The position numbers and the translations under genes were made by a program. Shown here piece after piece: positions 26,240-39,462 of a stretch of 39,462 nt of DNA; within the stretch, counting starts at the first letter, position 1; every line of letters starts with the position of its first letter. The notes under the pieces were generated by a model, which did no database searches, was not told the origin of the DNA, and saw nothing but the letters and a program-made list of their open reading frames with translations. Source of the stretch: Candidatus Dojkabacteria bacterium (GTDB taxonomy: Bacteria; Patescibacteriota; Dojkabacteria; SC72); assembly GCA_028704525.1 (NCBI GenBank), contig JAQWFF010000001.1, positions 1-39,462 of the forward strand. The letters run 5' to 3'.

Positions 26240-26512
26240 TTATTTATTCTTTCTATCTTCTGCTATCTTCCAGAAGAATAATCTCAATACACCACCTCTT
26301 ACATTAGGGTAATCACTCAACCATCCTTCTACATACCTAAGATAATCCATTTTATCCTGATGCTGTTTAGCTACACTCATGATCCTTGCATACTCTTTTC
26401 TAGGTATAGAATACTTCTTACAAAAATCCAAAGCCCATACTTGCCATTCTGGAAGGCTCTTTCCTTCACTCTTTACTTCATAGCCCTTTAATATGTCTTT
26501 AAGATTTTCCAT
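26240..26512 (-). CDS. Hypothetical protein
   Basis: 90-aa ORF that overlaps the upstream gene by 14 nt. Confidence 0.35.
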   Translation of the reverse strand: MENLKDILKGYEVKSEGKSLPEWQVWALDFCKKYSIPRKEYARIMSVAKQHQDKMDYLRYVEGWLSDYPNVRGGVLRLFFWKIAEDRKNK

Positions 26513-26819
26513 TCTGTTTAATCTTCCTGAGAAGTAAGGTTACATTCCTTGCCTTATTTGATTTAAGGACTTCACTCTTAGCCCATTTAACATCATCATA
26601 TGTAATCTTTACAGGAGTTCTCATTCTTCTAGCAACATCTACAAGTCCTACTTCTATCTCTTCATCATCATAAAGTACCAATACATTCTTTAACTCTGCT
26701 CTTGGCTCTGGAAATACTCCAATCCTTGTATAATAACCAATAGCCTTCCTATCAAAATTCTTCAATCCTAATATGTTAGCCATTTCAATTACTTCTCTTT
26801 GTGTCCATTCTTTTCTCAT
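26499..26819 (-). CDS. Putative HTH DNA-binding protein (MerR/excisionase-like N-terminus)
   Basis: WTQREVIEMANILGLKNFDRKAIGYYTRIGVFPEP resembles MerR/Xis-type helix-turn-helix starts. The call rests on weak motif-level evidence. Confidence 0.35.
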   Translation of the reverse strand: MRKEWTQREVIEMANILGLKNFDRKAIGYYTRIGVFPEPRAELKNVLVLYDDEEIEVGLVDVARRMRTPVKITYDDVKWAKSEVLKSNKARNVTLLLRKIKQNGKS

Positions 26820-27007
26820 TTCTTTTTATCCTTTATTTTAATTAGTTTAGATTTAACATATCTTTTCATATTAGCCTTCTGTCTTTTAAGCTCCTTATAT
26901 ACACTAGGTGGAACTATTCTTAAATCATTCCACTCTTCCCTTGTAAATGGAACTATCTTCCCTTTAATTGGAATTACTAGACCACCCTCATTAAACAGCT
27001 TTTCCAT
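26816..27007 (-). CDS. Hypothetical small basic protein
   Basis: 63-aa ORF with an ATGA stop/start overlap to the next gene. It is the first gene after tRNA-Thr. Confidence 0.35.
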   Translation of the reverse strand: MEKLFNEGGLVIPIKGKIVPFTREEWNDLRIVPPSVYKELKRQKANMKRYVKSKLIKIKDKKK

Positions 27008-27031
27008 ATCTCTATTGTTTTAATTTTAATT

Positions 27032-27104
27032 AGCTCCAGCTAAGACTTGAACTTAGAACCTACTGTTTACAAAACAGTTGCTCTACCAGTTGAGCTACAG
27101 GAGC
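27032..27104 (-). tRNA. tRNA-Thr (anticodon UGU)
   Basis: Manual cloverleaf: GCTCCTG-TA-GCTC-AACTGGTA-GAGC-A-ACTGT-TTTGTAA-ACAGT-AGGTT-CTAAG-TTCAAGT-CTTAG-CTGGAGC-T. It has a canonical D arm, a TTCAAGT T loop, U33 and A37, and one U-U mismatch in the acceptor stem. No CCA is encoded. Confidence 0.85.
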
Positions 27105-27293
27105 ATCCTTATCCTTTCCCCCAGATAAATACTTGCAATGTACAAAAAACTCAGCAAATCAAATTGCATATCTTTTCCCTTTAAAGAGCAAACAAGTATC
27201 CATCTTGTGGATGTCCAGAGGAAGGGATAAGGATTCAAGCTTTGTGCTTCAGGAACTGCCCCATCCTGCCAACAGCCCACTTGAGTTCTAATT
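27105..27293 (-). ncRNA. Structured spacer or leader RNA abutting the 5' end of tRNA-Thr
   Basis: There is no credible ORF here (track ORF 27095..27280 overlaps the tRNA). A long-range helix pairs GAATCCTTATCCCTTCC (~27234-27218) with GGGGGAAAGGATAAGGAT (27122-27105), which includes a 10-bp perfect core ATCCTTATCC/GGATAAGGAT. Internal hairpins are ATCCA-CAAGA-TGGAT and TGCAAT...ATTGCA. Confidence 0.4.
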
Positions 27294-27453
27294 CTTAGGG
27301 GTAGGGATTTGCACCCTACAACATCCAGTGGCCTACTTTGCTACAATGCGAATCACGCAACACATTTCGGCCGAGCGGACAGGCTGCTCTGATTAGGAGA
27401 ATCACTTTGCCCCTGTGACATAAACCTGCGTCTACCTATTCCACCACCCTAAG
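27294..27453 (-). ncRNA. tRNA-like RNA of ~160 nt: class-II (Leu-like) acceptor and D arm plus T arm, separated by a ~95-nt GC/CpG-rich insertion
   Basis: The 5' CTTAGGG (27453-27447) pairs with the 3' CCCTAAG (27300-27294). TG-GTG-GAATAGGTAGA-CGC closely mirrors the bacterial tRNA-Leu D arm. A GTAGGG-TGCAAAT-CCCTAC hairpin lies directly 5' of the 3' acceptor strand. I could not fold a canonical anticodon arm by hand. Confidence 0.5.
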
Positions 27454-27463
27454 TTTTAAAGAG

Positions 27464-27763
27464 CTACTCTCCTAATTTTAATTCATCCCAAAACACATTC
27501 TTAACTTCTATCTTCAAGGCTGGAAAATAGACATCTGTAACTTCTTCCCCACTAGGAAGAACAAAACTGCCTGTAGAATATCCAATTTTATCTTTCTTAC
27601 TTAACTCATTCCAACCATTCTTATATAAAAGGCTTTCCCAAACAGTACCTTTTCCACTCAAAACTTCTGTTCTTGGTAACATTGGTACAGTACTCATTTC
27701 TTTTCCGTCTATTATTTGAATATCTTTCCTCATTACTTCACCTCCATTTGAGCATAAGCCCAT
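27464..27763 (-). CDS. Hypothetical protein
   Basis: 99-aa ORF. The likely true start is the ATG at 27733 (MRKDIQ...), which forms a TAATG overlap with the stop of the upstream gene. Confidence 0.35.
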   Translation of the reverse strand: MGLCSNGGEVMRKDIQIIDGKEMSTVPMLPRTEVLSGKGTVWESLLYKNGWNELSKKDKIGYSTGSFVLPSGEEVTDVYFPALKIEVKNVFWDELKLGE

Positions 27764-28422
27764 CTATAATTCTTTAACCAATTTGTAGTATCATGTCCTA
27801 CATATTTTCTACTCTTAGCACTATCAGTACCTATTCCAATATAGCTCTTCTGTACTCCAGTACAAATCTCTCTTGCCATTGTTTCCATATCAGGGTCATA
27901 ACTTCTGTTACCACCTTTAAACCATCCATAGAAATTTGTTTTTCTACTTGTATTCCTACCCATAGATGTTTCTGCTACTGATATTGCTACTACTGTTCTT
28001 AGAGCTTCATCAGAACAATACTTGTCAAGTAGAGTAAAATACTTATCATCTATCTTTGAACCAGAGTAGCTTTGAGTAAATCTCTTTACTGCTTGAGTAG
28101 AGCTTTCCATAAATACTTCAGCTGGAACAACCTCTACAGTACCATCAGCTTTAGTAGTTACTTTATCTCCATCAACCCACTCTTCCTTATCTTCAATCAC
28201 AATCTCTTGAGCTTGTACTTTCTCAGGAGCTGGATCTACAGATACTTTAACCTCACCCTTTCTACCTACAAATGTTAAGAGCAATAAATAGATGAGCATA
28301 CCCATTGCTACTAGAAAGAAGAATCTTCTAAAAACTACTTCTCCTCTCCTTTGACCATCCAAGAGATTGATACTCTTTAGAAAAGTCTTAAACTTATTAG
28401 ATTTTATATTTAAAATCTTCAT
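27733..28422 (-). CDS. Membrane-anchored putative peptidoglycan hydrolase (glucosaminidase/lysozyme-like)
   Basis: It has an N-terminal TM helix (FFFLVAMGMLIYLLLLTFV). The C-terminal AISVAETSMGRNTSRKTNFYGW resembles the catalytic region of FlgJ/glucosaminidase-type enzymes. This is motif-level evidence only. Confidence 0.35.
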   Translation of the reverse strand: MKILNIKSNKFKTFLKSINLLDGQRRGEVVFRRFFFLVAMGMLIYLLLLTFVGRKGEVKVSVDPAPEKVQAQEIVIEDKEEWVDGDKVTTKADGTVEVVPAEVFMESSTQAVKRFTQSYSGSKIDDKYFTLLDKYCSDEALRTVVAISVAETSMGRNTSRKTNFYGWFKGGNRSYDPDMETMAREICTGVQKSYIGIGTDSAKSRKYVGHDTTNWLKNYRWAYAQMEVK

Positions 28423-30699: not shown

Positions 30700-31338
30700 T
30701 TAGAAAGGTAAATCCTCTTCCCCTATCTCTTCATCAGGCTCTAATGTTTTAATATTCTTTTTAATATCTTTAACATCATGCTCATCAATATCCATACCTT
30801 CAAAAGGATCTGATGTATCAACTGGAGTAAGTAAAGAACTTAAATCTATTTCACTAGATTCTGAAGCATCCTTTATCTCTGGAGCAAGAGCTGTAGGTGG
30901 AGATGGCATTACAAAATATTTTGTATCAATTCCACTTCCTTCTCTTTTAATGTTAATGTCATACTTCCTTAAATCTCCCCACTTAGCATCATTTACAAAC
31001 TCATACAATGACCTGAGAATAGATGCTTGTGTTATTTCCAATATCTTAATACTCTCATCCTTGTAATCCCATATCTTCATTGCCCAGAACTCCTTTGTCT
31101 GAAATTCTAATACTTCTTTAGGAAGCTTTTGTGTATATTCAATCCTGTAAGGCTTATCACCTTTCTCTCCTTTACCCTTCTCTCTTACAACTCCATCTGG
31201 ACTTACCCAGTAAAGCTTTCCTATAAGAGGTTTAGATAATATCCTAATGTTATTTGCACCTTCACCCAATTTCATAAAATCACTTGATGTTGCTGGAGTA
31301 TATCCCTTTGGTAAAAATCCATCTTCTTTATTTGACAT
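30700..31338 (-). CDS. Putative single-stranded DNA-binding protein
   Basis: 212 aa with a long acidic C-terminal tail ending EEDLPF. This recalls the C-terminal tip of bacterial SSB (DDDIPF) and the acidic, Phe-terminated tail of T7 gp2.5-type SSBs. The body is beta-rich. A dedicated promoter lies upstream. Confidence 0.5.
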   Translation of the reverse strand: MSNKEDGFLPKGYTPATSSDFMKLGEGANNIRILSKPLIGKLYWVSPDGVVREKGKGEKGDKPYRIEYTQKLPKEVLEFQTKEFWAMKIWDYKDESIKILEITQASILRSLYEFVNDAKWGDLRKYDINIKREGSGIDTKYFVMPSPPTALAPEIKDASESSEIDLSSLLTPVDTSDPFEGMDIDEHDVKDIKKNIKTLEPDEEIGEEDLPF

Positions 31339-31455
31339 GTTTATTAAAAAACTAATTTAAAAATTGTAGTGGATTGCACACCTGAAGCAGTAAATATGTA
31401 GTTACAATTTAGATATGGAATAGAAAATCAATCCTATTTCCTACATTCCTAATAT

Positions 31456-31492
31456 AGAATAGTATATACACCACCCATTGTCAATATATATT
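31456..31492 (-). promoter_or_regulatory. Sigma70-type promoter sharing the 22-bp core AATATATATTGACAATGGGTGG
   Basis: TTGACA lies at 31484-31479. With a 17-nt spacer the -10 is TATTCT (31461-31456). An alternative TATATT lies 22 nt downstream of the -35. It is upstream of the SSB-like gene. Confidence 0.45.
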
Positions 31493-31524
31493 ACTATAAG
31501 ACAACTGCCCCTGATTTTATTAAA

Positions 31525-31633
31525 CTATTTATGAATCTTTTTATGACAATCCTTGCAGACAGAAAGTAGATCTGACATCTTTTCTCTGTGAAGATTCTGT
31601 TAGCTTCTTACATGTATTACAATATCTTCTCAT
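31525..31633 (-). pseudogene. Frameshifted remnant of a small 4-Cys (HNH-like / zinc-ribbon) gene
   Basis: Frame A from the ATG at 31633 reads MRRYCNTCKKLTESSQRKD.... Frame B, shifted by one nt, from 31578 reads MSDLLSVCKDCHKKIHK*. Together these give CxxC...CxxCHxxxH, like the ends of the intact HNH gene at 32163..32438, but the central HH/GG core is missing. Confidence 0.35.
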
Positions 31634-31955
31634 CTATACATAGGTATCATATTATCTTCATCCCTGTTGTTGTAATGCCCCCCTTACCCCCCACACCATA
31701 GGGATAAGATTTCTTGCCATGTTTTACCTGTTTTCTCTCAGCATGGCTCAACACACTCTGTTAAACTAATCCATAGGTTATGTGTTTCCCTATTGTACCT
31801 ATTGTGCTATTACATACCTTTAACTCTCATCATCCCTTATTGGCTACCTTTTAGAGCTGTAGCAACCCAATCCCCTGTATTTCTCCATAACTAGGATGGT
31901 CTTTATGTTCTTTTAAGTGGTCAAATACTACCTTGCCACTATTACACCTAGTATT

Positions 31956-32075
31956 TTAAATGCAAAAAGCACCCATTTCTGAGTGCTTTAAGCAATGGAT
32001 TACTTCATTAAAAGTAACAGCAAACCTACTGGCATTTCTCTGTAGATAAGTTGTACCTTTTAATGATTGTTCCAT
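31956..32075 (-). other. Short leaderless transcription unit: a 39-codon ORF (MEQSLKGTTYLQRNASRFAVTFNEVIHCLKHSEMGAFCI) or a small RNA
   Basis: The ATG begins 7 nt after the -10 hexamer of the 32082-32110 promoter. The terminator hairpin (31968-31987) lies inside the 3' end of the ORF. Confidence 0.3.
31961..31988 (-). terminator. Intrinsic terminator candidate
   Basis: AGCACTC-AGAAAT-GGGTGCT forms a 7-bp stem with one G-U pair and is followed by TTTTGCATTT. Confidence 0.45.
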
Positions 32076-32081
32076 ATGTAT

Positions 32082-32110
32082 ATCTAACTAAAATTTCCAA
32101 AGGATGTCAA
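32082..32110 (-). promoter_or_regulatory. Sigma70-type promoter (TTGACA, 17-nt spacer, TTAGAT)
   Basis: The minus strand reads TTGACA-TCCTTTGGAAATTTTAG-TTAGAT. It lies inside the ORF-free region just downstream of the HNH gene. Confidence 0.45.
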
Positions 32111-32162
32111 GAGGGGATATTCATACTTGTAAAAAGATATATATAATACCCCCTCTTTAATC

Positions 32163-32438
32163 CTACCTTCTCCTCCTTTTCTTTTTCTTGTGTACTTTAT
32201 TAGCACTTCTGTACTCTCCAACTGGATTGCCATAATCATCTGATGTTGTTAATCCCCACTTGTTGTGATAATTTCTATGGCAATCCCTACACCAACAAAT
32301 ACAATTTTCTAATGTTCCACCTCCACCTCTTGCTTTAGGTAACTTATGATGAACTGTAAGATGATTACTACTTCCACAAATTTTACACTTACCACAATCT
32401 CTCTCATGCACATAGGACTTCCAGTTACTCTTAGACAC
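32163..32438 (-). CDS. HNH endonuclease
   Basis: CGKCKICGSSNHLTVHHKLPKARGGGGTLENCICWCRDCHRNYH contains the full HNH signature (CxxC, HH, N, CxxCH...H). Confidence 0.8.
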   Translation of the reverse strand: MSKSNWKSYVHERDCGKCKICGSSNHLTVHHKLPKARGGGGTLENCICWCRDCHRNYHNKWGLTTSDDYGNPVGEYRSANKVHKKKKRRRR

Positions 32439-32487
32439 AGCACACCTCTTTTCTAGGATCTAGTAGGACTTGTAAAAGAACACTAAA

Positions 32488-33135
32488 CTATAAGTATCTT
32501 GCAACTTCTTCAAGCATTGTATCTGTATCTGATATTCTTACCATCTTCTTATCATGATTGAGTATTAACCAATACATACCAAGTTCTGCACCAACTTGAG
32601 TTCCAAACCCACTATCTTTAGTATATTCACTCCCCAGCTGATATGTACCACTTACTACTCCATAGGTCATTCTACTGCCCCTAAACTCTCTTACAGGCTG
32701 TTCTATCTTACCTCTCTTATGTGTATGACCACAGAAGGCTATATCCAACCCCTGCACTTCCTTATGACCTCTTACAGGTGGATGCACATTGTTGTAAATA
32801 GAATTTCCCCTTAGCCTATGGCTTCCCATGAGCTTGTAATTAACATCATTAACAAACATATCTATATATGCATTGCCATAAAATACTGGAGCATTGTACT
32901 TCTCAGACAGCCCAGCATATTTACTTGTACCATACTTCCTTTCCCATTTATGGTCATGATTACCCTTCCAGAAAGCAAATATCTTATCTTCTCCAATATA
33001 ATCAAAGATGCTCATCATTGCTCTTCTCTGCTCTTCAAAGTTGAGAATACTCTCATCCTGAGCTGGATTGAAATTTGCACTATCTAATAAATCTCCAAGA
33101 AAAAACACCCCACTTACAAGGGGATGTGTTGCCAT
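32488..33135 (-). CDS. Metallophosphoesterase, C-terminal part (motifs II-V)
   Basis: Carries the calcineurin-like phosphoesterase motifs GDLLD, GNHDH and GHTH. It is in the same frame as 33151..33453 and separated from it by a single TAA. Confidence 0.75.
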   Translation of the reverse strand: MATHPLVSGVFFLGDLLDSANFNPAQDESILNFEEQRRAMMSIFDYIGEDKIFAFWKGNHDHKWERKYGTSKYAGLSEKYNAPVFYGNAYIDMFVNDVNYKLMGSHRLRGNSIYNNVHPPVRGHKEVQGLDIAFCGHTHKRGKIEQPVREFRGSRMTYGVVSGTYQLGSEYTKDSGFGTQVGAELGMYWLILNHDKKMVRISDTDTMLEEVARYL

Positions 33136-33150
33136 TATCTCTACATCTCT

Positions 33151-33453
33151 TTAAAGCATTGGCTTGTCTATCTTTGCTCCAAGATGCCAATCTCCTGAAA
33201 GCCCTATTACTGCTGGTCTATCTGTAGCTATCTCAATCTTCCCATAATCTGCTACATCTTCTATATCATCTCTAAATTGATTCCTTCTTTCTATCTCTTC
33301 AAACCATTCTTCTACAGATTTGTTTCTAGGCTTTGCAAACTCAATATTAACCCTCTGGATTTCTTCTTCCTTACTCTCCCTAATTATCTCTTCTCTACTT
33401 CTATAACTACCATCTGGATAATAAAGTCCATCTTGTTCTATATTCTGGCTCAT
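33151..33453 (-). CDS. Metallophosphoesterase, N-terminal part (motif I, GDWHLG) terminated by an in-frame TAA
   Basis: It ends ...VIGLSGDWHLGAKIDKPML*, which carries the D-x-H motif I. Five in-frame sense codons then lead to the ATG of 32488..33135. Confidence 0.7.
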   Translation of the reverse strand: MSQNIEQDGLYYPDGSYRSREEIIRESKEEEIQRVNIEFAKPRNKSVEEWFEEIERRNQFRDDIEDVADYGKIEIATDRPAVIGLSGDWHLGAKIDKPML

Positions 33454-33509
33454 AGTATAATGTATAGCTCTCTAAAGGAAGTGCATTTCCTTGTGAGGTA
33501 CTAAGTAAC

Positions 33510-33523
33510 AACTTATATAAGTT
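33510..33523. promoter_or_regulatory. Perfect 14-bp palindrome AACTTATATAAGTT (operator-like) between the terminator and the phosphoesterase operon
   Basis: Read directly from the sequence. It lies in the 109-bp intergenic region upstream of the ATG at 33453. Confidence 0.3.
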
Positions 33524-33555
33524 ACAAACAAATGAGGGGAAGCTACAACTTCCCC
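33524..33555 (-). terminator. Strong intrinsic terminator after the holin-like gene
   Basis: GGGGAAG-TTGTAG-CTTCCCC forms a perfect 7-bp stem and is followed by TCATTTGTTTGT. An A-run on the 5' side makes it potentially bidirectional. Confidence 0.6.
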
Positions 33556-33562
33556 TTTTTTA

Positions 33563-33898
33563 CTAACTAAATCTTTCTTCCAATGCTGGAATACTTTTAA
33601 TGATCAATTCATATATAGTCTGAATCATACCCTTAATAGCTACAAAGTTGATAAAGAAGAACTGTAGGAGATTCCCAACATTCTCTTCAAAGCTTTCTAC
33701 CCATTGATATTTAACAAGAACTAAAACAAGTGCAACTGCTCCTGATAGTAATGTAATTACTAATCTCTTCTCTGCTGTTGTAAGGTCTTTCTGGAATATC
33801 TTTCCAATAAACTTGAAAAGAGAAGGCAATACAAATGGAGCTAATGAACCAATTGCTCCTGAAACACCAGCACTTAAAATGAATAATTCGCTGTCCAT
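33563..33898 (-). CDS. Holin-like membrane protein (three predicted TM helices)
   Basis: 111 aa with hydrophobic segments SAGVSGAIGSLAPFVLPSLF, LVITLLSGAVALVLVLV and LLQFFFINFVAIKGMI. It lies downstream of the M23 peptidase gene and is followed by a strong terminator. Confidence 0.4.
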   Translation of the reverse strand: MDSELFILSAGVSGAIGSLAPFVLPSLFKFIGKIFQKDLTTAEKRLVITLLSGAVALVLVLVKYQWVESFEENVGNLLQFFFINFVAIKGMIQTIYELIIKSIPALEERFS

Positions 33899-34047
33899 TA
33901 TATTTTAGATAAAATAAATTTAACTAACATTGTACAAAACAGAATAATACTTGCTGAATATATTATTATGTTTAGTATGTCATTCACTTTTTTTCTTTCC
34001 TTGTTTAATCTATCTTTAATTGTACTAACAGGCTTCAATTGTTCCAA
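33898..34047 (-). CDS. Possible 49-aa membrane micro-protein with TTG start (…NDILNIIIYSASIILFCTMLVKFILSKI)
   Basis: Translated manually. Its stop overlaps the holin-like ATG as TAATG. It has no ATG start, so the call is weak. Confidence 0.25.
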   Translation of the reverse strand: MEQLKPVSTIKDRLNKERKKVNDILNIIIYSASIILFCTMLVKFILSKI

Positions 34048-34077
34048 AAAACAATCTCTAATAATTTAAGGATACTC

Positions 34078-35163
34078 CTACTTCTTCTTAGGAAATAGTT
34101 TCTCCAACAAATCTACAACCCATATAAACCTTCCATTCTTATATGCATTTAACTCTGATACTGCCTTTGTTCTATCATTTTCTGCTGTCTTTCTTTTAAT
34201 AACCTCTGTACCATACTTATCTTCTAATTCCTGATAATCAATCTTATCCTGTTCAATCTCTCCATTCTTTTCCATGATAACTTCATCCATTACTTTAATC
34301 TTATCATTAAGCTTTACTATCTCTGCTTCTAGCTCTGTTATCTTTGCACTATTATCAACTGGTACAATTACTTTACTTCCATCTACATTGGTAACAGATG
34401 CTGTACTTTTTGTTACCCAGTATTCACCACCATCCTTTTTAACAGCACACATGCCACAATCATCACCAAAACTCATGAGATACCAACTGTAGCCACCATT
34501 GGCAATTTCAATGCTCCTGACAAGCCCTACAGCTCCAGATTGAACAGTAAGACCCCTCTTGAAGTATTTATCATCAATAATAAAAGCTTCCCTAAGCTTT
34601 GTATTCTCATTAAACTTTATTTTATCTCCAATGTTAAACATAGTTGTATTTCCCTGAGAAATTATATCACCATTTAAAACTAAGTTCCTGATTTTCAATC
34701 CCCTATTACTCCATTCATCCAGATGAAGATGAGGAGCAAACCCTGTTACACTCTGAGGAGCTATCTTACATATAGGACTACCAGCCTTTACAAGACCCTT
34801 AGCCCATTGATAAGTATGCACCAGAGCTATTACATAATCACTTCCTACTGGCTGTACCTTACACCAGCTACCATCACTAGGATTTGTTGCCAATACATTT
34901 ACATCAACATTCATTGATAAAACTGCACCAGCTACAATTGAAAAGTCTATTGGATTTCTATTGGCATTACTTACATACTTTGCATGAGAGCCACCAATGT
35001 ATGTCTTATATCCAGATGGTAAAGTTGCTGTATCAAACTCTGCAAGAATTGGCTTGTAATATGTACCAGCACTATTTCTGTAATACTTGCCACTTTCATT
35101 CTGAGTTACTGGTACAGTAGCTAAGTCCTTACCACTTGCATATATTATATATTTTTTTGCCAT
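34078..35163 (-). CDS. M23-family peptidoglycan endopeptidase with C-terminal coiled coil (endolysin or virion lysin candidate)
   Basis: It has the PHLHLDEW (HxH) motif and an upstream H...NPIDF (HxxxD-like) motif of LytM/M23 peptidases. The C-terminal ~90 aa are Glu/Lys-rich heptads. Confidence 0.7.
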   Translation of the reverse strand: MAKKYIIYASGKDLATVPVTQNESGKYYRNSAGTYYKPILAEFDTATLPSGYKTYIGGSHAKYVSNANRNPIDFSIVAGAVLSMNVDVNVLATNPSDGSWCKVQPVGSDYVIALVHTYQWAKGLVKAGSPICKIAPQSVTGFAPHLHLDEWSNRGLKIRNLVLNGDIISQGNTTMFNIGDKIKFNENTKLREAFIIDDKYFKRGLTVQSGAVGLVRSIEIANGGYSWYLMSFGDDCGMCAVKKDGGEYWVTKSTASVTNVDGSKVIVPVDNSAKITELEAEIVKLNDKIKVMDEVIMEKNGEIEQDKIDYQELEDKYGTEVIKRKTAENDRTKAVSELNAYKNGRFIWVVDLLEKLFPKKK

Positions 35164-35180
35164 ATCAACTTAATGACAAA

Positions 35181-35618
35181 TTAAACATGATCAATTAAAG
35201 ACATAAACCATTCAATAATACCTTGAATAATTGGAATACTATTTACTATTGTTGTAATACCTATAAGACCTAGCAACCATCTTACATTGGTATAGAAGGT
35301 AATCATTTTACCAAGAGATTCAAGCTTTGATTCTTTCTGTCCTTTTTCACAAAGATTCATATCTTCAAACCAATCAAGTGCAGGTTCAGCTCTTTCTATT
35401 ATTTGTAGGTCTGTGTTTTTTTTAGCATAGAGATATGCAAAATTAGCTCTGGCTTTTAAGGTATCTTCTTCATTAGTACCTATTTCACCAAGCAATAATC
35501 TTTCCAATCTGGATAATGTTGATTTAACTTCAGTAAGTTCTTTTAAAACATCCTTCTGTATCTTCAATGCTTCTTCTCTAGCAATTGATCTTACTTCCCT
35601 CTCTGTTAATTCTGCCAT
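35181..35618 (-). CDS. Membrane protein with N-terminal coiled coil and C-terminal TM helix (lysis-cassette associated?)
   Basis: 145 aa. It has a C-terminal hydrophobic segment, WLLGLIGITTIVNSIPIIQGIIEWFMSLI. It is the first gene after the giant ORF and directly precedes the M23 peptidase gene. Confidence 0.35.
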   Translation of the reverse strand: MAELTEREVRSIAREEALKIQKDVLKELTEVKSTLSRLERLLLGEIGTNEEDTLKARANFAYLYAKKNTDLQIIERAEPALDWFEDMNLCEKGQKESKLESLGKMITFYTNVRWLLGLIGITTIVNSIPIIQGIIEWFMSLIDHV

Positions 35619-35695
35619 AAGTGTTCTTTGTTTATGTTAGTTCTAGCTCTAACATTCCTGTAATATAGTGTATGTTATAGAGAGCTTTAAGTCAA

Positions 35696-38600
35696 TTAAA
35701 ATAACTTTGTTTTATTGTCATCATCCTCTTTTTCACCATACCTCTTATCATAACTTGCTTGTGTTATTGCAATGTATTTCTGGAATCCAGCCTGTGTAAT
35801 CAGCCCATCCTTGAACAACTTTCTCAAAGTATCATTATCCATAGCATCTCTTTTTCTTAACTCATTAAGCAAATCATTATTACTGTCCTGACTTAAAACT
35901 GGGATAGATTCTTTAACAACCTTATATATTAAATCCTGACTTAGATTCTTATCCTTTGCATACTCTGCAAACATCTCTCCTTTAACTACTTCATATCTTA
36001 CAGCCTGAGCCATGAAGTCTTTAAACTCTTCATCACTCATCTTCTTCTTCTGACTATTGATTATCTCAAGCTTTTCATCATTATCAAGTCCAGCCTTTGC
36101 AATACTCTTATATACAGCATTACCACTATTTGCAAGAATCTCTCTCTTAAACTCACTCTTTAACCTTGTTTCTTCTGCCTTCTCTGTACCACTCCAACCC
36201 CCTTCTGGTCTTTCACCTTTGACTTCTATTACATATTTCTCCTGAAGCTCCAATAATTTCTTATTGGAAGGCTCTGCATAATAGCTCTCTATAAATCCAT
36301 CCAATGTTTTATTCTTTTCTCTCTTACCAAGTGCCTTGTCATTCTCTTCTCTCTCTTGAAGTCCATAATTTGTAAGCTCAAACATTCTTTCCAGAAGTGG
36401 AAGCTCCATTGTCTTTTCTAAAGTTGTATCAGAAGATTTGTCATATGTAGAGAAGTTAGTTAAGCCCATCTCATTGCTAGTCCATTTAAGCATCTCAGTA
36501 AATCTGGTCATACCACCTTCATTCCACTTACTTGTGTTAATTGCCAACCTTCCCCTAAAGTCATCATAAGGATTTCTACCCTGTAGGTATTGTTTCCAAT
36601 CTCTCATTATAGAAAGAAGAGGATTATCTCCAGTAGTAAATGGTACAAGTCCAGCAATTGCACTTCCAAGTTGTTCTACTTTCATACCTTCACCTTGTAG
36701 ATATGTAGCCATCTTCCATACAAGATTACCTATTACTGCACCTACTTCATCAGAAGGAGCTTTAACAAACATAAAACTTTCACTCTCTTCATCATATCCA
36801 ATTGGAAATGCCATATACATACTCTTGTAATACTCTGATAGATAATCATATGGATTTACCCACTTCTTCTTTTCTGGATCATCTGGGTCTGGAATTGGAA
36901 CTCTCAATATACTTGCACCAAGTAGCATGAGTAACTTAGGGAATACTATCTTAAACATTGTACTTACCCAATACCCACTTGCTGTTTTAGGTCTTGTTGC
37001 CAAGTCCATATCAGCTGTAATTGCTTGAATACCTACATTACTAAAGACTACCAGCTCATTTGTAAGAGGAGTAAACTTACCTTTCTGCATATAATCTGGA
37101 GTACCTACATACCTTCTTGTATAAAAGGAAGCCTTCTCATCTCCTACCTTATCTGATAAATACTGGAATCCAGCTATCTTACTATTTACCTCAAAAGTTG
37201 AACCAGCTCTCATATAGAAGTCATACATTGGTACAAGTGTATGCTTAATTACAGGAATTGTTGATCCCCAATCTCTAAGGGTTTCCAACCAGTTCACACC
37301 ACCCTTAAATACTATTCTGTTTTTAACAGGATCAAACTTAAACTTCTCATTGCCAAGATCAATATCTTCATACTTAACATTGCTAGACAGTACATACATA
37401 TCCAACATCTTCTGAGTAATAGCATCCATTTCACCACCAGCATAATTCCAGCTTCTCTTTAAGTTCTTAATCCATTCCCTTGTAAATGCTCCAAAGACTT
37501 TAGCTGTTCTACTTACTACATTACTCTTATCAAAGAGTCCTGATAATGCTGTTAGATTTGTAAGACTTCTCTGATAGTCCTTGATTGGATTGCTATAGAA
37601 CTGGAAGGATGCCTTCATTACAGTTACAGCAGGTTTAAAGATTCTATTTACCATTCTTAGTGGAGCTGTAACAAACCTCATTGTATCCCAGAACCAACCA
37701 TTAAGACTATTGTCAAACATGGCAATGATATACTTATCCATATAGTATGCACTCTTCTTTCCATCTTCCAAAAGTTCCAATTGTGCATAACCACTCCTCT
37801 CAAGCTTAGGATTCTTTTTAAATCCAACGACTCTACCTTCACCATCCTTTATTGCTTCTGCTTTTACAATCTCATCAGGGAATATTTCTGCAAGACTTTT
37901 TACTACATCCTGCTTTGCATTATTTCTTGCTGTTAATTTCATAAGACTTAAACTCTTTAGCATCTGAGTTGTAAGAGGATTCTCAACACCCTTTGTTGTA
38001 CCAACTGCTTGTATTATTCCAGCTGTAACATAGTTATCCTCAATGTAATCCACAACTGCAAATGGAGTATAAGTATTCTTATTTACTGTAGCTATCTCTT
38101 CAAAGAACTTTTCACTATATACACCAGCTTCATATCCTTTTCTTACAAGCTCAAAATTGTAATCTCTCCACCAACTCAACTTCTCTGAAAGAAGATTCCA
38201 TTGTGCTGGAGTAAGCTGTCCTTTAACAAAGTCATAAGTTTCTTTAGCATAGTCATATACAAGCCCATGAGGATTTGCTAGATCTAATCTATCACCAAGA
38301 TTCCTTTCAAGTACAAGTATCTGTCCTACTGTATCAATGTCTATTCCAGCTTCACTTACTGGAACAAAGAACTCATTTTGTACATCTTGTGCATATTTAA
38401 CTGCATCATTACCTTTAAGAGCTAAATCACCCATCAACTGTTCTGCTTCTTCCAGCTTTGAAAGTGTAATCTTCTTATCCTTCCAAGCCTTTCTCAACTT
38501 GTCCAGATATGGAGCATACTGATTCACAAAGCCCATCTTAATACCAGTAATACCTTCTTGCCACTTACTCTGTTTTCTATAGGCTTCCTTCTCTTCATCA

Positions 38601-39462
38601 ATTGTCATTCTCTTTCCTCTTGCAATCTCCTGAGCTTTCTTCATATTCTCTACTCTACTTTGTACTTCATTGCCTTCTTTTATCATATCTCTTATAGCAA
38701 AGTATTCATTCTGTACTTCCTTCTTCCTTGCCATGTACTCAATGAATCCCTGATAGAAGTTAGGAGCAACCTCTTTAACCAGAGATGGCTTGTTAAGAAA
38801 TACTGATAGAGCTTCTGCATATAATTCTTTAGCTGAGTATCTGTAGGTCTTATATTTCTTAGGTACACTTGCTTCATCAAATGGATTCCATACCTGAGTA
38901 AGAGCCTTTAATTCCTTCCTGATTTCTTTATTGTTTAGATCCATAAATTGCCCTTCTGTATAACTTCTAAGATTTGCTATCCTTCCTAGAATATTCCCTC
39001 TTTTAAGAGTCATATTCTCAGTACCACCAAACCAATCAAACAAGTGTCCTATCTCATGAGCTAGTACCTTCTCAATTGCATGTATTCTATCCATCTGTTG
39101 CTCTGATGTTTCTGGTAACTTCTCTACATTACCCTCTCCATCCATAACCTCTTCACCTTGTGGCTCAAACAACTCTCTGAGGATTCTGATTCTTGAATCA
39201 GTATTTGCACTTGGAGTAAAATCTCCAAGCTTTGCTCTACCTCTAAACTTCTTCTGGAGCTTTATATTAGCTCCAAGCTCTGTTGCCATTGTAATAAGTT
39301 CTGGGAGCTTTACTGACACAGCTGACTCTTGCTCTAATGCCATTGCTTCTGGAGATGGATTATCACCCATCCTATACTTCACATCCTCAAACTGCTCATT
39401 AATAATTTTAGATTTCTCATTCATTGAATCATCAGAAACATAGAAAATCTTGTTAATACCAT
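35696..39462 (-). CDS. Giant multidomain protein, C-terminal 1,242 codons plus upstream open frame to the window edge (same ORF as 1-5663)
   Basis: The track ORF 35696..39424 begins at an internal Met. The frame stays open upstream to 39462, and this Met (equivalent to position 89) is in frame with the ATG at 5663 (5663-89=5574=3x1858). An HEIGH zincin motif is encoded at 39044-39058 (VLAHEIGHLFDW). Confidence 0.85.
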   Translation of the reverse strand, partial: GINKIFYVSDDSMNEKSKIINEQFEDVKYRMGDNPSPEAMALEQESAVSVKLPELITMATELGANIKLQKKFRGRAKLGDFTPSANTDSRIRILRELFEPQGEEVMDGEGNVEKLPETSEQQMDRIHAIEKVLAHEIGHLFDWFGGTENMTLKRGNILGRIANLRSYTEGQFMDLNNKEIRKELKALTQVWNPFDEASVPKKYKTYRYSAKELYAEALSVFLNKPSLVKEVAPNFYQGFIEYMARKKEVQNEYFAIRDMIKEGNEVQSRVENMKKAQEIARGKRMTIDEEKEAYRKQSKWQEGITGIKMGFVNQYAPYLDKLRKAWKDKKITLSKLEEAEQLMGDLALKGNDAVKYAQDVQNEFFVPVSEAGIDIDTVGQILVLERNLGDRLDLANPHGLVYDYAKETYDFVKGQLTPAQWNLLSEKLSWWRDYNFELVRKGYEAGVYSEKFFEEIATVNKNTYTPFAVVDYIEDNYVTAGIIQAVGTTKGVENPLTTQMLKSLSLMKLTARNNAKQDVVKSLAEIFPDEIVKAEAIKDGEGRVVGFKKNPKLERSGYAQLELLEDGKKSAYYMDKYIIAMFDNSLNGWFWDTMRFVTAPLRMVNRIFKPAVTVMKASFQFYSNPIKDYQRSLTNLTALSGLFDKSNVVSRTAKVFGAFTREWIKNLKRSWNYAGGEMDAITQKMLDMYVLSSNVKYEDIDLGNEKFKFDPVKNRIVFKGGVNWLETLRDWGSTIPVIKHTLVPMYDFYMRAGSTFEVNSKIAGFQYLSDKVGDEKASFYTRRYVGTPDYMQKGKFTPLTNELVVFSNVGIQAITADMDLATRPKTASGYWVSTMFKIVFPKLLMLLGASILRVPIPDPDDPEKKKWVNPYDYLSEYYKSMYMAFPIGYDEESESFMFVKAPSDEVGAVIGNLVWKMATYLQGEGMKVEQLGSAIAGLVPFTTGDNPLLSIMRDWKQYLQGRNPYDDFRGRLAINTSKWNEGGMTRFTEMLKWTSNEMGLTNFSTYDKSSDTTLEKTMELPLLERMFELTNYGLQEREENDKALGKREKNKTLDGFIESYYAEPSNKKLLELQEKYVIEVKGERPEGGWSGTEKAEETRLKSEFKREILANSGNAVYKSIAKAGLDNDEKLEIINSQKKKMSDEEFKDFMAQAVRYEVVKGEMFAEYAKDKNLSQDLIYKVVKESIPVLSQDSNNDLLNELRKRDAMDNDTLRKLFKDGLITQAGFQKYIAITQASYDKRYGEKEDDDNKTKLF
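39336..39462. repeat. Terminal direct repeat, right copy (identical to 1-127). It indicates a circular or terminally redundant genome of 39,335 bp
   Basis: Exact 127-bp identity with 1-127. An overlap of exactly 127 nt is what a de Bruijn assembler run at k=127 leaves on circular contigs (established knowledge about assemblers). Confidence 0.9.

Follow-up and report, generated by a model that had tools for sequence, protein, structure and literature searches.

Metallophosphoesterases of the calcineurin-like PF00149 (Metallophos) superfamily, such as Mre11/SbcD, PolD DP1 and LpxH, have five ordered metal-binding motifs and a predicted fold in common with the phage protein reported here, which differs from them in having its own family-specific N-terminal extension of about 75 residues. 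Its gene is also comparable with phrog_7339 and other phage metallophosphoesterases, being likewise encoded by a phage and placed at the head of a replication/recombination gene block. In contrast to Mre11/SbcD, no Rad50/SbcC-like partner was noticed among the neighbours, which are holin-like, M23 peptidase and HNH genes. The metallophosphoesterase Gp48 of mycobacteriophage A10ZJ24 has been described as the product of an early, host-dependent accessory gene which the phage can do without in one host but needs in another (PMC12287305).

Here we surveyed the window, i.e. the whole stretch of 39,462 nucleotides under analysis, and one interrupted gene within it. Positions 1-127 and 39336-39462 form an exact terminal overlap of 127 bp, and the window is therefore a phage genome closed into a circle of 39,335 bp. 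It was binned with a bacterial metagenome-assembled genome (768 kb in 92 contigs), of which it is the longest contig, and its GC content is 35.4% against about 33%. The phage genome is densely coding under translation table 11. A greedy ORF map gave 51 ORFs, and all three stop codons are in use (TAA 35, TAG 11 and TGA 5), which agrees with the preliminary description of TAA as the commonest genuine stop. The same map gave no other pair of ORFs split in one frame anywhere in the 39.3-kb genome.

On the minus strand, an ORF of 100 aa and an ORF of 215 aa lie in one frame, separated by a TAA and five sense codons (Table 1). This arrangement very probably arose by an ordinary nonsense mutation, recent and specific to one lineage, that struck a conserved metallophosphoesterase gene of the phage population in a single landfill sample. 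The first ORF contains the family-specific N-terminal extension, the first core strands and motif I (GDWH, with D88 and H90), and the second carries motifs II-V (GDLLD, GNHDH, GSH and GHTH). In the numbering of the read-through product the motif residues are D88/H90 (motif I), D121 (motif II), N165/H166, H212 and H243/H245. This layout, with motif I on one ORF, the other motifs on the next and a single in-frame TAA between them, is as first described, and the normal spacing of motifs I and II that had been put at about 30 residues with the stop ignored was measured as 33 residues. The five codons after the stop (RDVEI) are part of the ancestral gene, since they align with an RD.EI segment conserved in all homologues, and, lying between the stop and the following ATG, they are no longer translated.

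Table 1. Features of the interrupted metallophosphoesterase locus (positions in the window).
Feature	Position	Strand	Remarks
Terminator-like hairpin, 9-bp stem, T-rich tail	33535..33556	(-)	between holin-like and phosphoesterase genes
Ancestral 321-codon metallophosphoesterase gene (phrog_7339-type)	32488..33453	(-)	interrupted at codon 101
N-terminal fragment ORF, 100 aa + stop	33151..33453	(-)	ends ...GLSGDWHLGAKIDKPML-TAA
Premature TAA, codon 101	33151..33153	(-)	C>T transition relative to CAA (Gln); + strand G>A at 33153
Five in-frame sense codons AGA GAT GTA GAG ATA (RDVEI)	33136..33150	(-)	between TAA and next ATG
C-terminal fragment ORF, 215 aa	32488..33135	(-)	ATG at 33135; MATHPLVSGVFFLGDLLD...GNHDH...GHTH

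The read-through product of 321 aa was compared with the phrog_7339 ("DNA repair exonuclease") HMM and gave an E-value of 4.2e-27 and 96.1 bits, with residues 69-286 aligned on profile positions 18-240 of 263; the C-terminal half alone scored 73.8 bits. On this alignment the two ORFs are the halves of one gene, because the read-through product matches the profile across the stop and does so better than the C-terminal half. They are best annotated as one disrupted metallophosphoesterase gene (a pseudogene or nonsense allele), neither as two proteins nor as evidence of recoding. The score of the window protein against PF00149 was 18.2 bits, below the gathering cut-off of 21.5, whereas 19 of 21 aligned relatives match this family at E<=0.01, the best of them at 1.2e-6. 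The window protein carries the five metal-binding motifs of the superfamily in their usual order: GDWH at 87-90, GDLLD at 120-124, GNHD at 164-167, GSH at 210-212 and GHTH at 242-245. A search of 5.8 billion proteins found 60 homologues, nearly all uninterrupted, 308-323 aa long and colinear from end to end. D88, D121, H166, H212, H243 and H245 are invariant across the 57 aligned sequences, and H90 is nearly so.

The AF2 model, built with the alignment of these 57 sequences, has the beta-sandwich metallophosphoesterase fold (pLDDT 84.6, pTM 0.77); with a family alignment as input, AF2 would yield the family fold whatever the stability of the two fragments. The best PDB matches by Foldseek were the PolD DP1 exonuclease subunit, Mre11 and LpxH, all with probability 1.0, and these matches are generic (TM about 0.4-0.5 and 9-16% identity, with Mre11 at TM about 0.39). 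Among viral structures in BFVD the best matches were phage calcineurin-like phosphoesterases, up to E 5e-18. No PDB sequence matched at E<=1 in a profile search, and no family was found for the phosphoesterase in NCBIfam. A nucleotide search of the annotated phage collection likewise gave no match, and tblastn against it matched only Caldibacillus phage CBP1, at 26% identity.

The codon at the site of the stop was read in the relatives. The reading frame is open across the site in all 56 full-length homologues that were aligned, and across the whole gene in all seven IMG/VR loci, which were read as DNA and are thus free of ORF-calling bias. The residues in this column are K in 19 homologues, Q in 12, R in 9, E in 5 and others in the remainder, so that it is a variable polar position and not a conserved feature. 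By protein sequence the nearest relative is P0001 (96% identical), whose gene lies on three ENA contigs, each of a different sample (L002, L003 and L004); in the 131 nt centred on the site these contigs differ from the window only in the first base of the codon, CAA against TAA. Logan contigs of eight other public runs (X2-X9), which stem from at least two further studies, comprise wastewater and other metagenomes and contain the same or a closely related phage at 95-99% identity, all have G at + strand position 33153, i.e. CAA. The gene order in run X3 is unchanged over 30.7-37 kb at about 95-97% identity, with a sense codon at the site; because this surrounding region matches in order, the X3 gene is an ortholog in the same or a closely related phage and not a transferred paralogue. 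Only run X1, a landfill metagenome, has A at 33153, on a contig of 37,999 bp (k-mer depth 14.5) which is otherwise identical to the window, and this run appears to be the source sample. The comparison of orthologues proposed in the preliminary description thus returned a sense codon throughout, in 56 proteins, seven IMG/VR loci, three ENA contigs and eight runs.

The age of the mutation can be judged from the rest of the gene. The nearest relative, the X3 contig, has 13 differences in 951 nt, namely 10 synonymous changes, the two conservative changes I136L and I197V, and the stop itself. As the differences other than the stop are almost all synonymous, the mutation is taken to be recent. Compared with L002 there are 30 differences in codons 1-286, again almost all synonymous, and both halves have therefore been under purifying selection until very recently; beyond the stop there is no sign of decay elsewhere in the gene. 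The last 35 codons differ from L002 as a block, and as the same variant tail is seen in P0010 and P0012, a mosaic recombination inside the phosphoesterase gene is suggested by its sequence. L002-L004 are 95.7% identical to the window over the gene only, and their flanks could not be aligned by blastn. The phosphoesterase gene of X3 is 98.6% identical, against about 95% for the adjacent lysis genes. Conservation is thus higher in the gene than in its flanks, from which it can be argued that the gene normally matters to the phage, and the null allele may for that reason be costly and transient rather than neutral.

A single C>T transition has changed codon 101 from CAA (Gln) to TAA. Under the standard code, translation stops after 100 residues and leaves the motif I fragment detached from motifs II-V, so that the expected outcome would be a lost enzyme activity, that is, a new pseudogene or the null allele of an accessory gene dispensable in the current host. 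Loss of activity is the most likely result; what is observed directly is the substitution, that no relative has it and that a recoding apparatus is lacking, and from this we infer loss of function and its tolerability. Four candidate explanations had been left unranked in the preliminary description, and among these the recent nonsense mutation is strongly supported (the relatives have CAA, and only one sample shows the C>T change), while read-through or ochre suppression and the split enzyme are not supported, the stop being unconserved and neither a suppressor tRNA nor a split orthologue having been found. In the source sample the population may be mixed, or a wild-type allele at low frequency may complement in trans.

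It is also conceivable that the gene has become a functional split enzyme, in which translation starts again at the ATG that lies 15 nt beyond the stop and the fragments of 100 aa and 215 aa associate non-covalently into a partly active dinuclear site, and we hold this to be quite unlikely. The ATG is near the stop and in frame, the pairing of its upstream sequence with the anti-SD (-2.9 kcal/mol) is no weaker than the phage median (-1.75 kcal/mol), and both halves are otherwise undamaged. Re-initiation at the Met107 ATG is possible on the strength of this SD-like pairing, and this conserved ATG could let both fragments be made. However, an undamaged sequence is equally expected of a very young pseudogene, and the ATG is an ancestral internal methionine rather than an adaptation (of the 56 homologues, 32 have M at residue 107, 19 have I and 5 have L). 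In the AF2 model the stop falls inside the core helix 97-109, after the motif I strand 81-86, where there is no domain boundary, and residues 101-106 would be missing from both fragments. If ribosomes did re-initiate at Met107, the 215-aa product would be without motif I, the first core strands and half of helix alpha-1. Neither the homologue proteins nor the IMG/VR loci include a split orthologue; consistently split orthologues with an independently folding N-terminal protein had been named in the preliminary description as a finding that would speak against a disrupted gene.

An artefact of sequencing or assembly, or a minority variant fixed by chance in the consensus of a population that really has CAA, is very unlikely. 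The change is a single + strand G>A, which is a common type of error or damage, and only one sample shows it; the other two runs of the same study (X21 and X22) were searched and the phage was not found in them. Against this, the bin contig and the Logan contig of 37,999 bp from X1 agree, and X1 has no contig with the alternative allele. A consensus error is thus unlikely, because two assemblies agree at a k-mer depth of about 14.5; the evidence from X1 is at contig level, and the two assemblies are probably from the same reads and therefore not fully independent.

The UAA codon is read by RF1 and RF2 alike and is the least leaky bacterial stop. In the 768-kb bin ARAGORN found 44 tRNAs, none with a TTA, CTA or TCA anticodon; the only tRNA of the phage itself is tRNA-Thr(TGT), and a permissive Rfam scan (E<=1) of 26500-28000 returned this tRNA-Thr only and nothing with a UUA anticodon, so that the suppressor tRNA proposed for phage or host did not turn up in the phage or the bin. 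Production of the full-length 321-aa enzyme by programmed read-through, ochre suppression or reassignment of TAA is extremely unlikely, for although the stop aligns with the Gln of the nearest relatives, and Gln is how TAA is translated in known reassignments, the stop is absent from every relative, TAA ends 35 of the 51 ORFs with no other gene interrupted, and no suppressor tRNA was found by ARAGORN in the phage or bin, and the first reading of genome-wide recoding as unlikely was right.

The recent nonsense mutation may be compared with a second loss in a related lineage. The 200-aa homologue P0059 (L005 6001-6603, and also L006 and L007) has an in-frame deletion of about 112 residues which removes motifs I-III. 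This lineage is found in three samples and shares the gene order of the phage: amidase, small gene, metallophosphoesterase, HNH and, further on, a Rad52-like gene. Judged by its sequence, the deletion is a probable independent and persisting catalytic loss of the orthologous phosphoesterase, and as this lineage is without motifs I-III, loss of catalysis appears to be tolerated. The phosphoesterase has thus been inactivated at least twice independently and is yet highly conserved, which suggests that it is a conditionally dispensable accessory function. There is also a slim chance that the knock-out is adaptive and that the null allele has swept the landfill population as an escape mutant. An early-made phosphoesterase, likely a nuclease or nucleotide phosphodiesterase, would in that case be a trigger of host defence or a costly counter-defence, and the mutation would have a parallel in the independent deletion of motifs I-III.

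The phosphoesterase gene sits after the lysis block (M23 peptidase and holin-like genes) and before the HNH, SSB and replication genes. The hairpin listed in Table 1 is directly 3' of the holin-like gene and 80 nt ahead of the phosphoesterase start; it is terminator-like on both strands and closes the lysis/late unit. Around the phosphoesterase gene, scanning for promoters gave 8 sites against 8.0 in shuffled sequence, and as the sites are no commoner than in shuffled sequence, no promoter is claimed. Over 42 phage genes the median anti-SD duplex energy is -1.75 kcal/mol and most genes are without a strong Shine-Dalgarno sequence; many gene starts on the minus strand are preceded by A/T-rich strings such as AATAAG or TAATAA. 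A gap of ~0.8 kb (31339-32162) separates the SSB-like gene from the HNH gene; no ORF in it exceeds 51 aa, and in the X3 relative it is longer by about 300 bases, near 31594. Neither repeats nor Rfam matches of any significance were detected there, and the gap could be an origin or a regulatory region. The phage group is widespread in wastewater. For window 30700-37000, phage contigs ~96% identical were seen in X2-X5 at depth 40-180, in wastewater libraries labelled "METAGENOMIC RNA-Seq cDNA", and this signal may come from transcripts or from carried-over DNA.

The finding matters little beyond annotation. The allele resembles spontaneous ochre mutants of phages and young pseudogenes in having the same C>T change of CAA to TAA in an intact and conserved ORF, private to its lineage and with no compensating suppressor. 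In contrast to ochre mutants selected in the laboratory, it was seen in an uncultivated phage population, from a metagenome. The behaviour reported for Gp48 (PMC12287305) is in keeping with a gene whose loss through nonsense mutation or deletion is tolerated, and this functional analogy may serve as a lead rather than as demonstrated homology.
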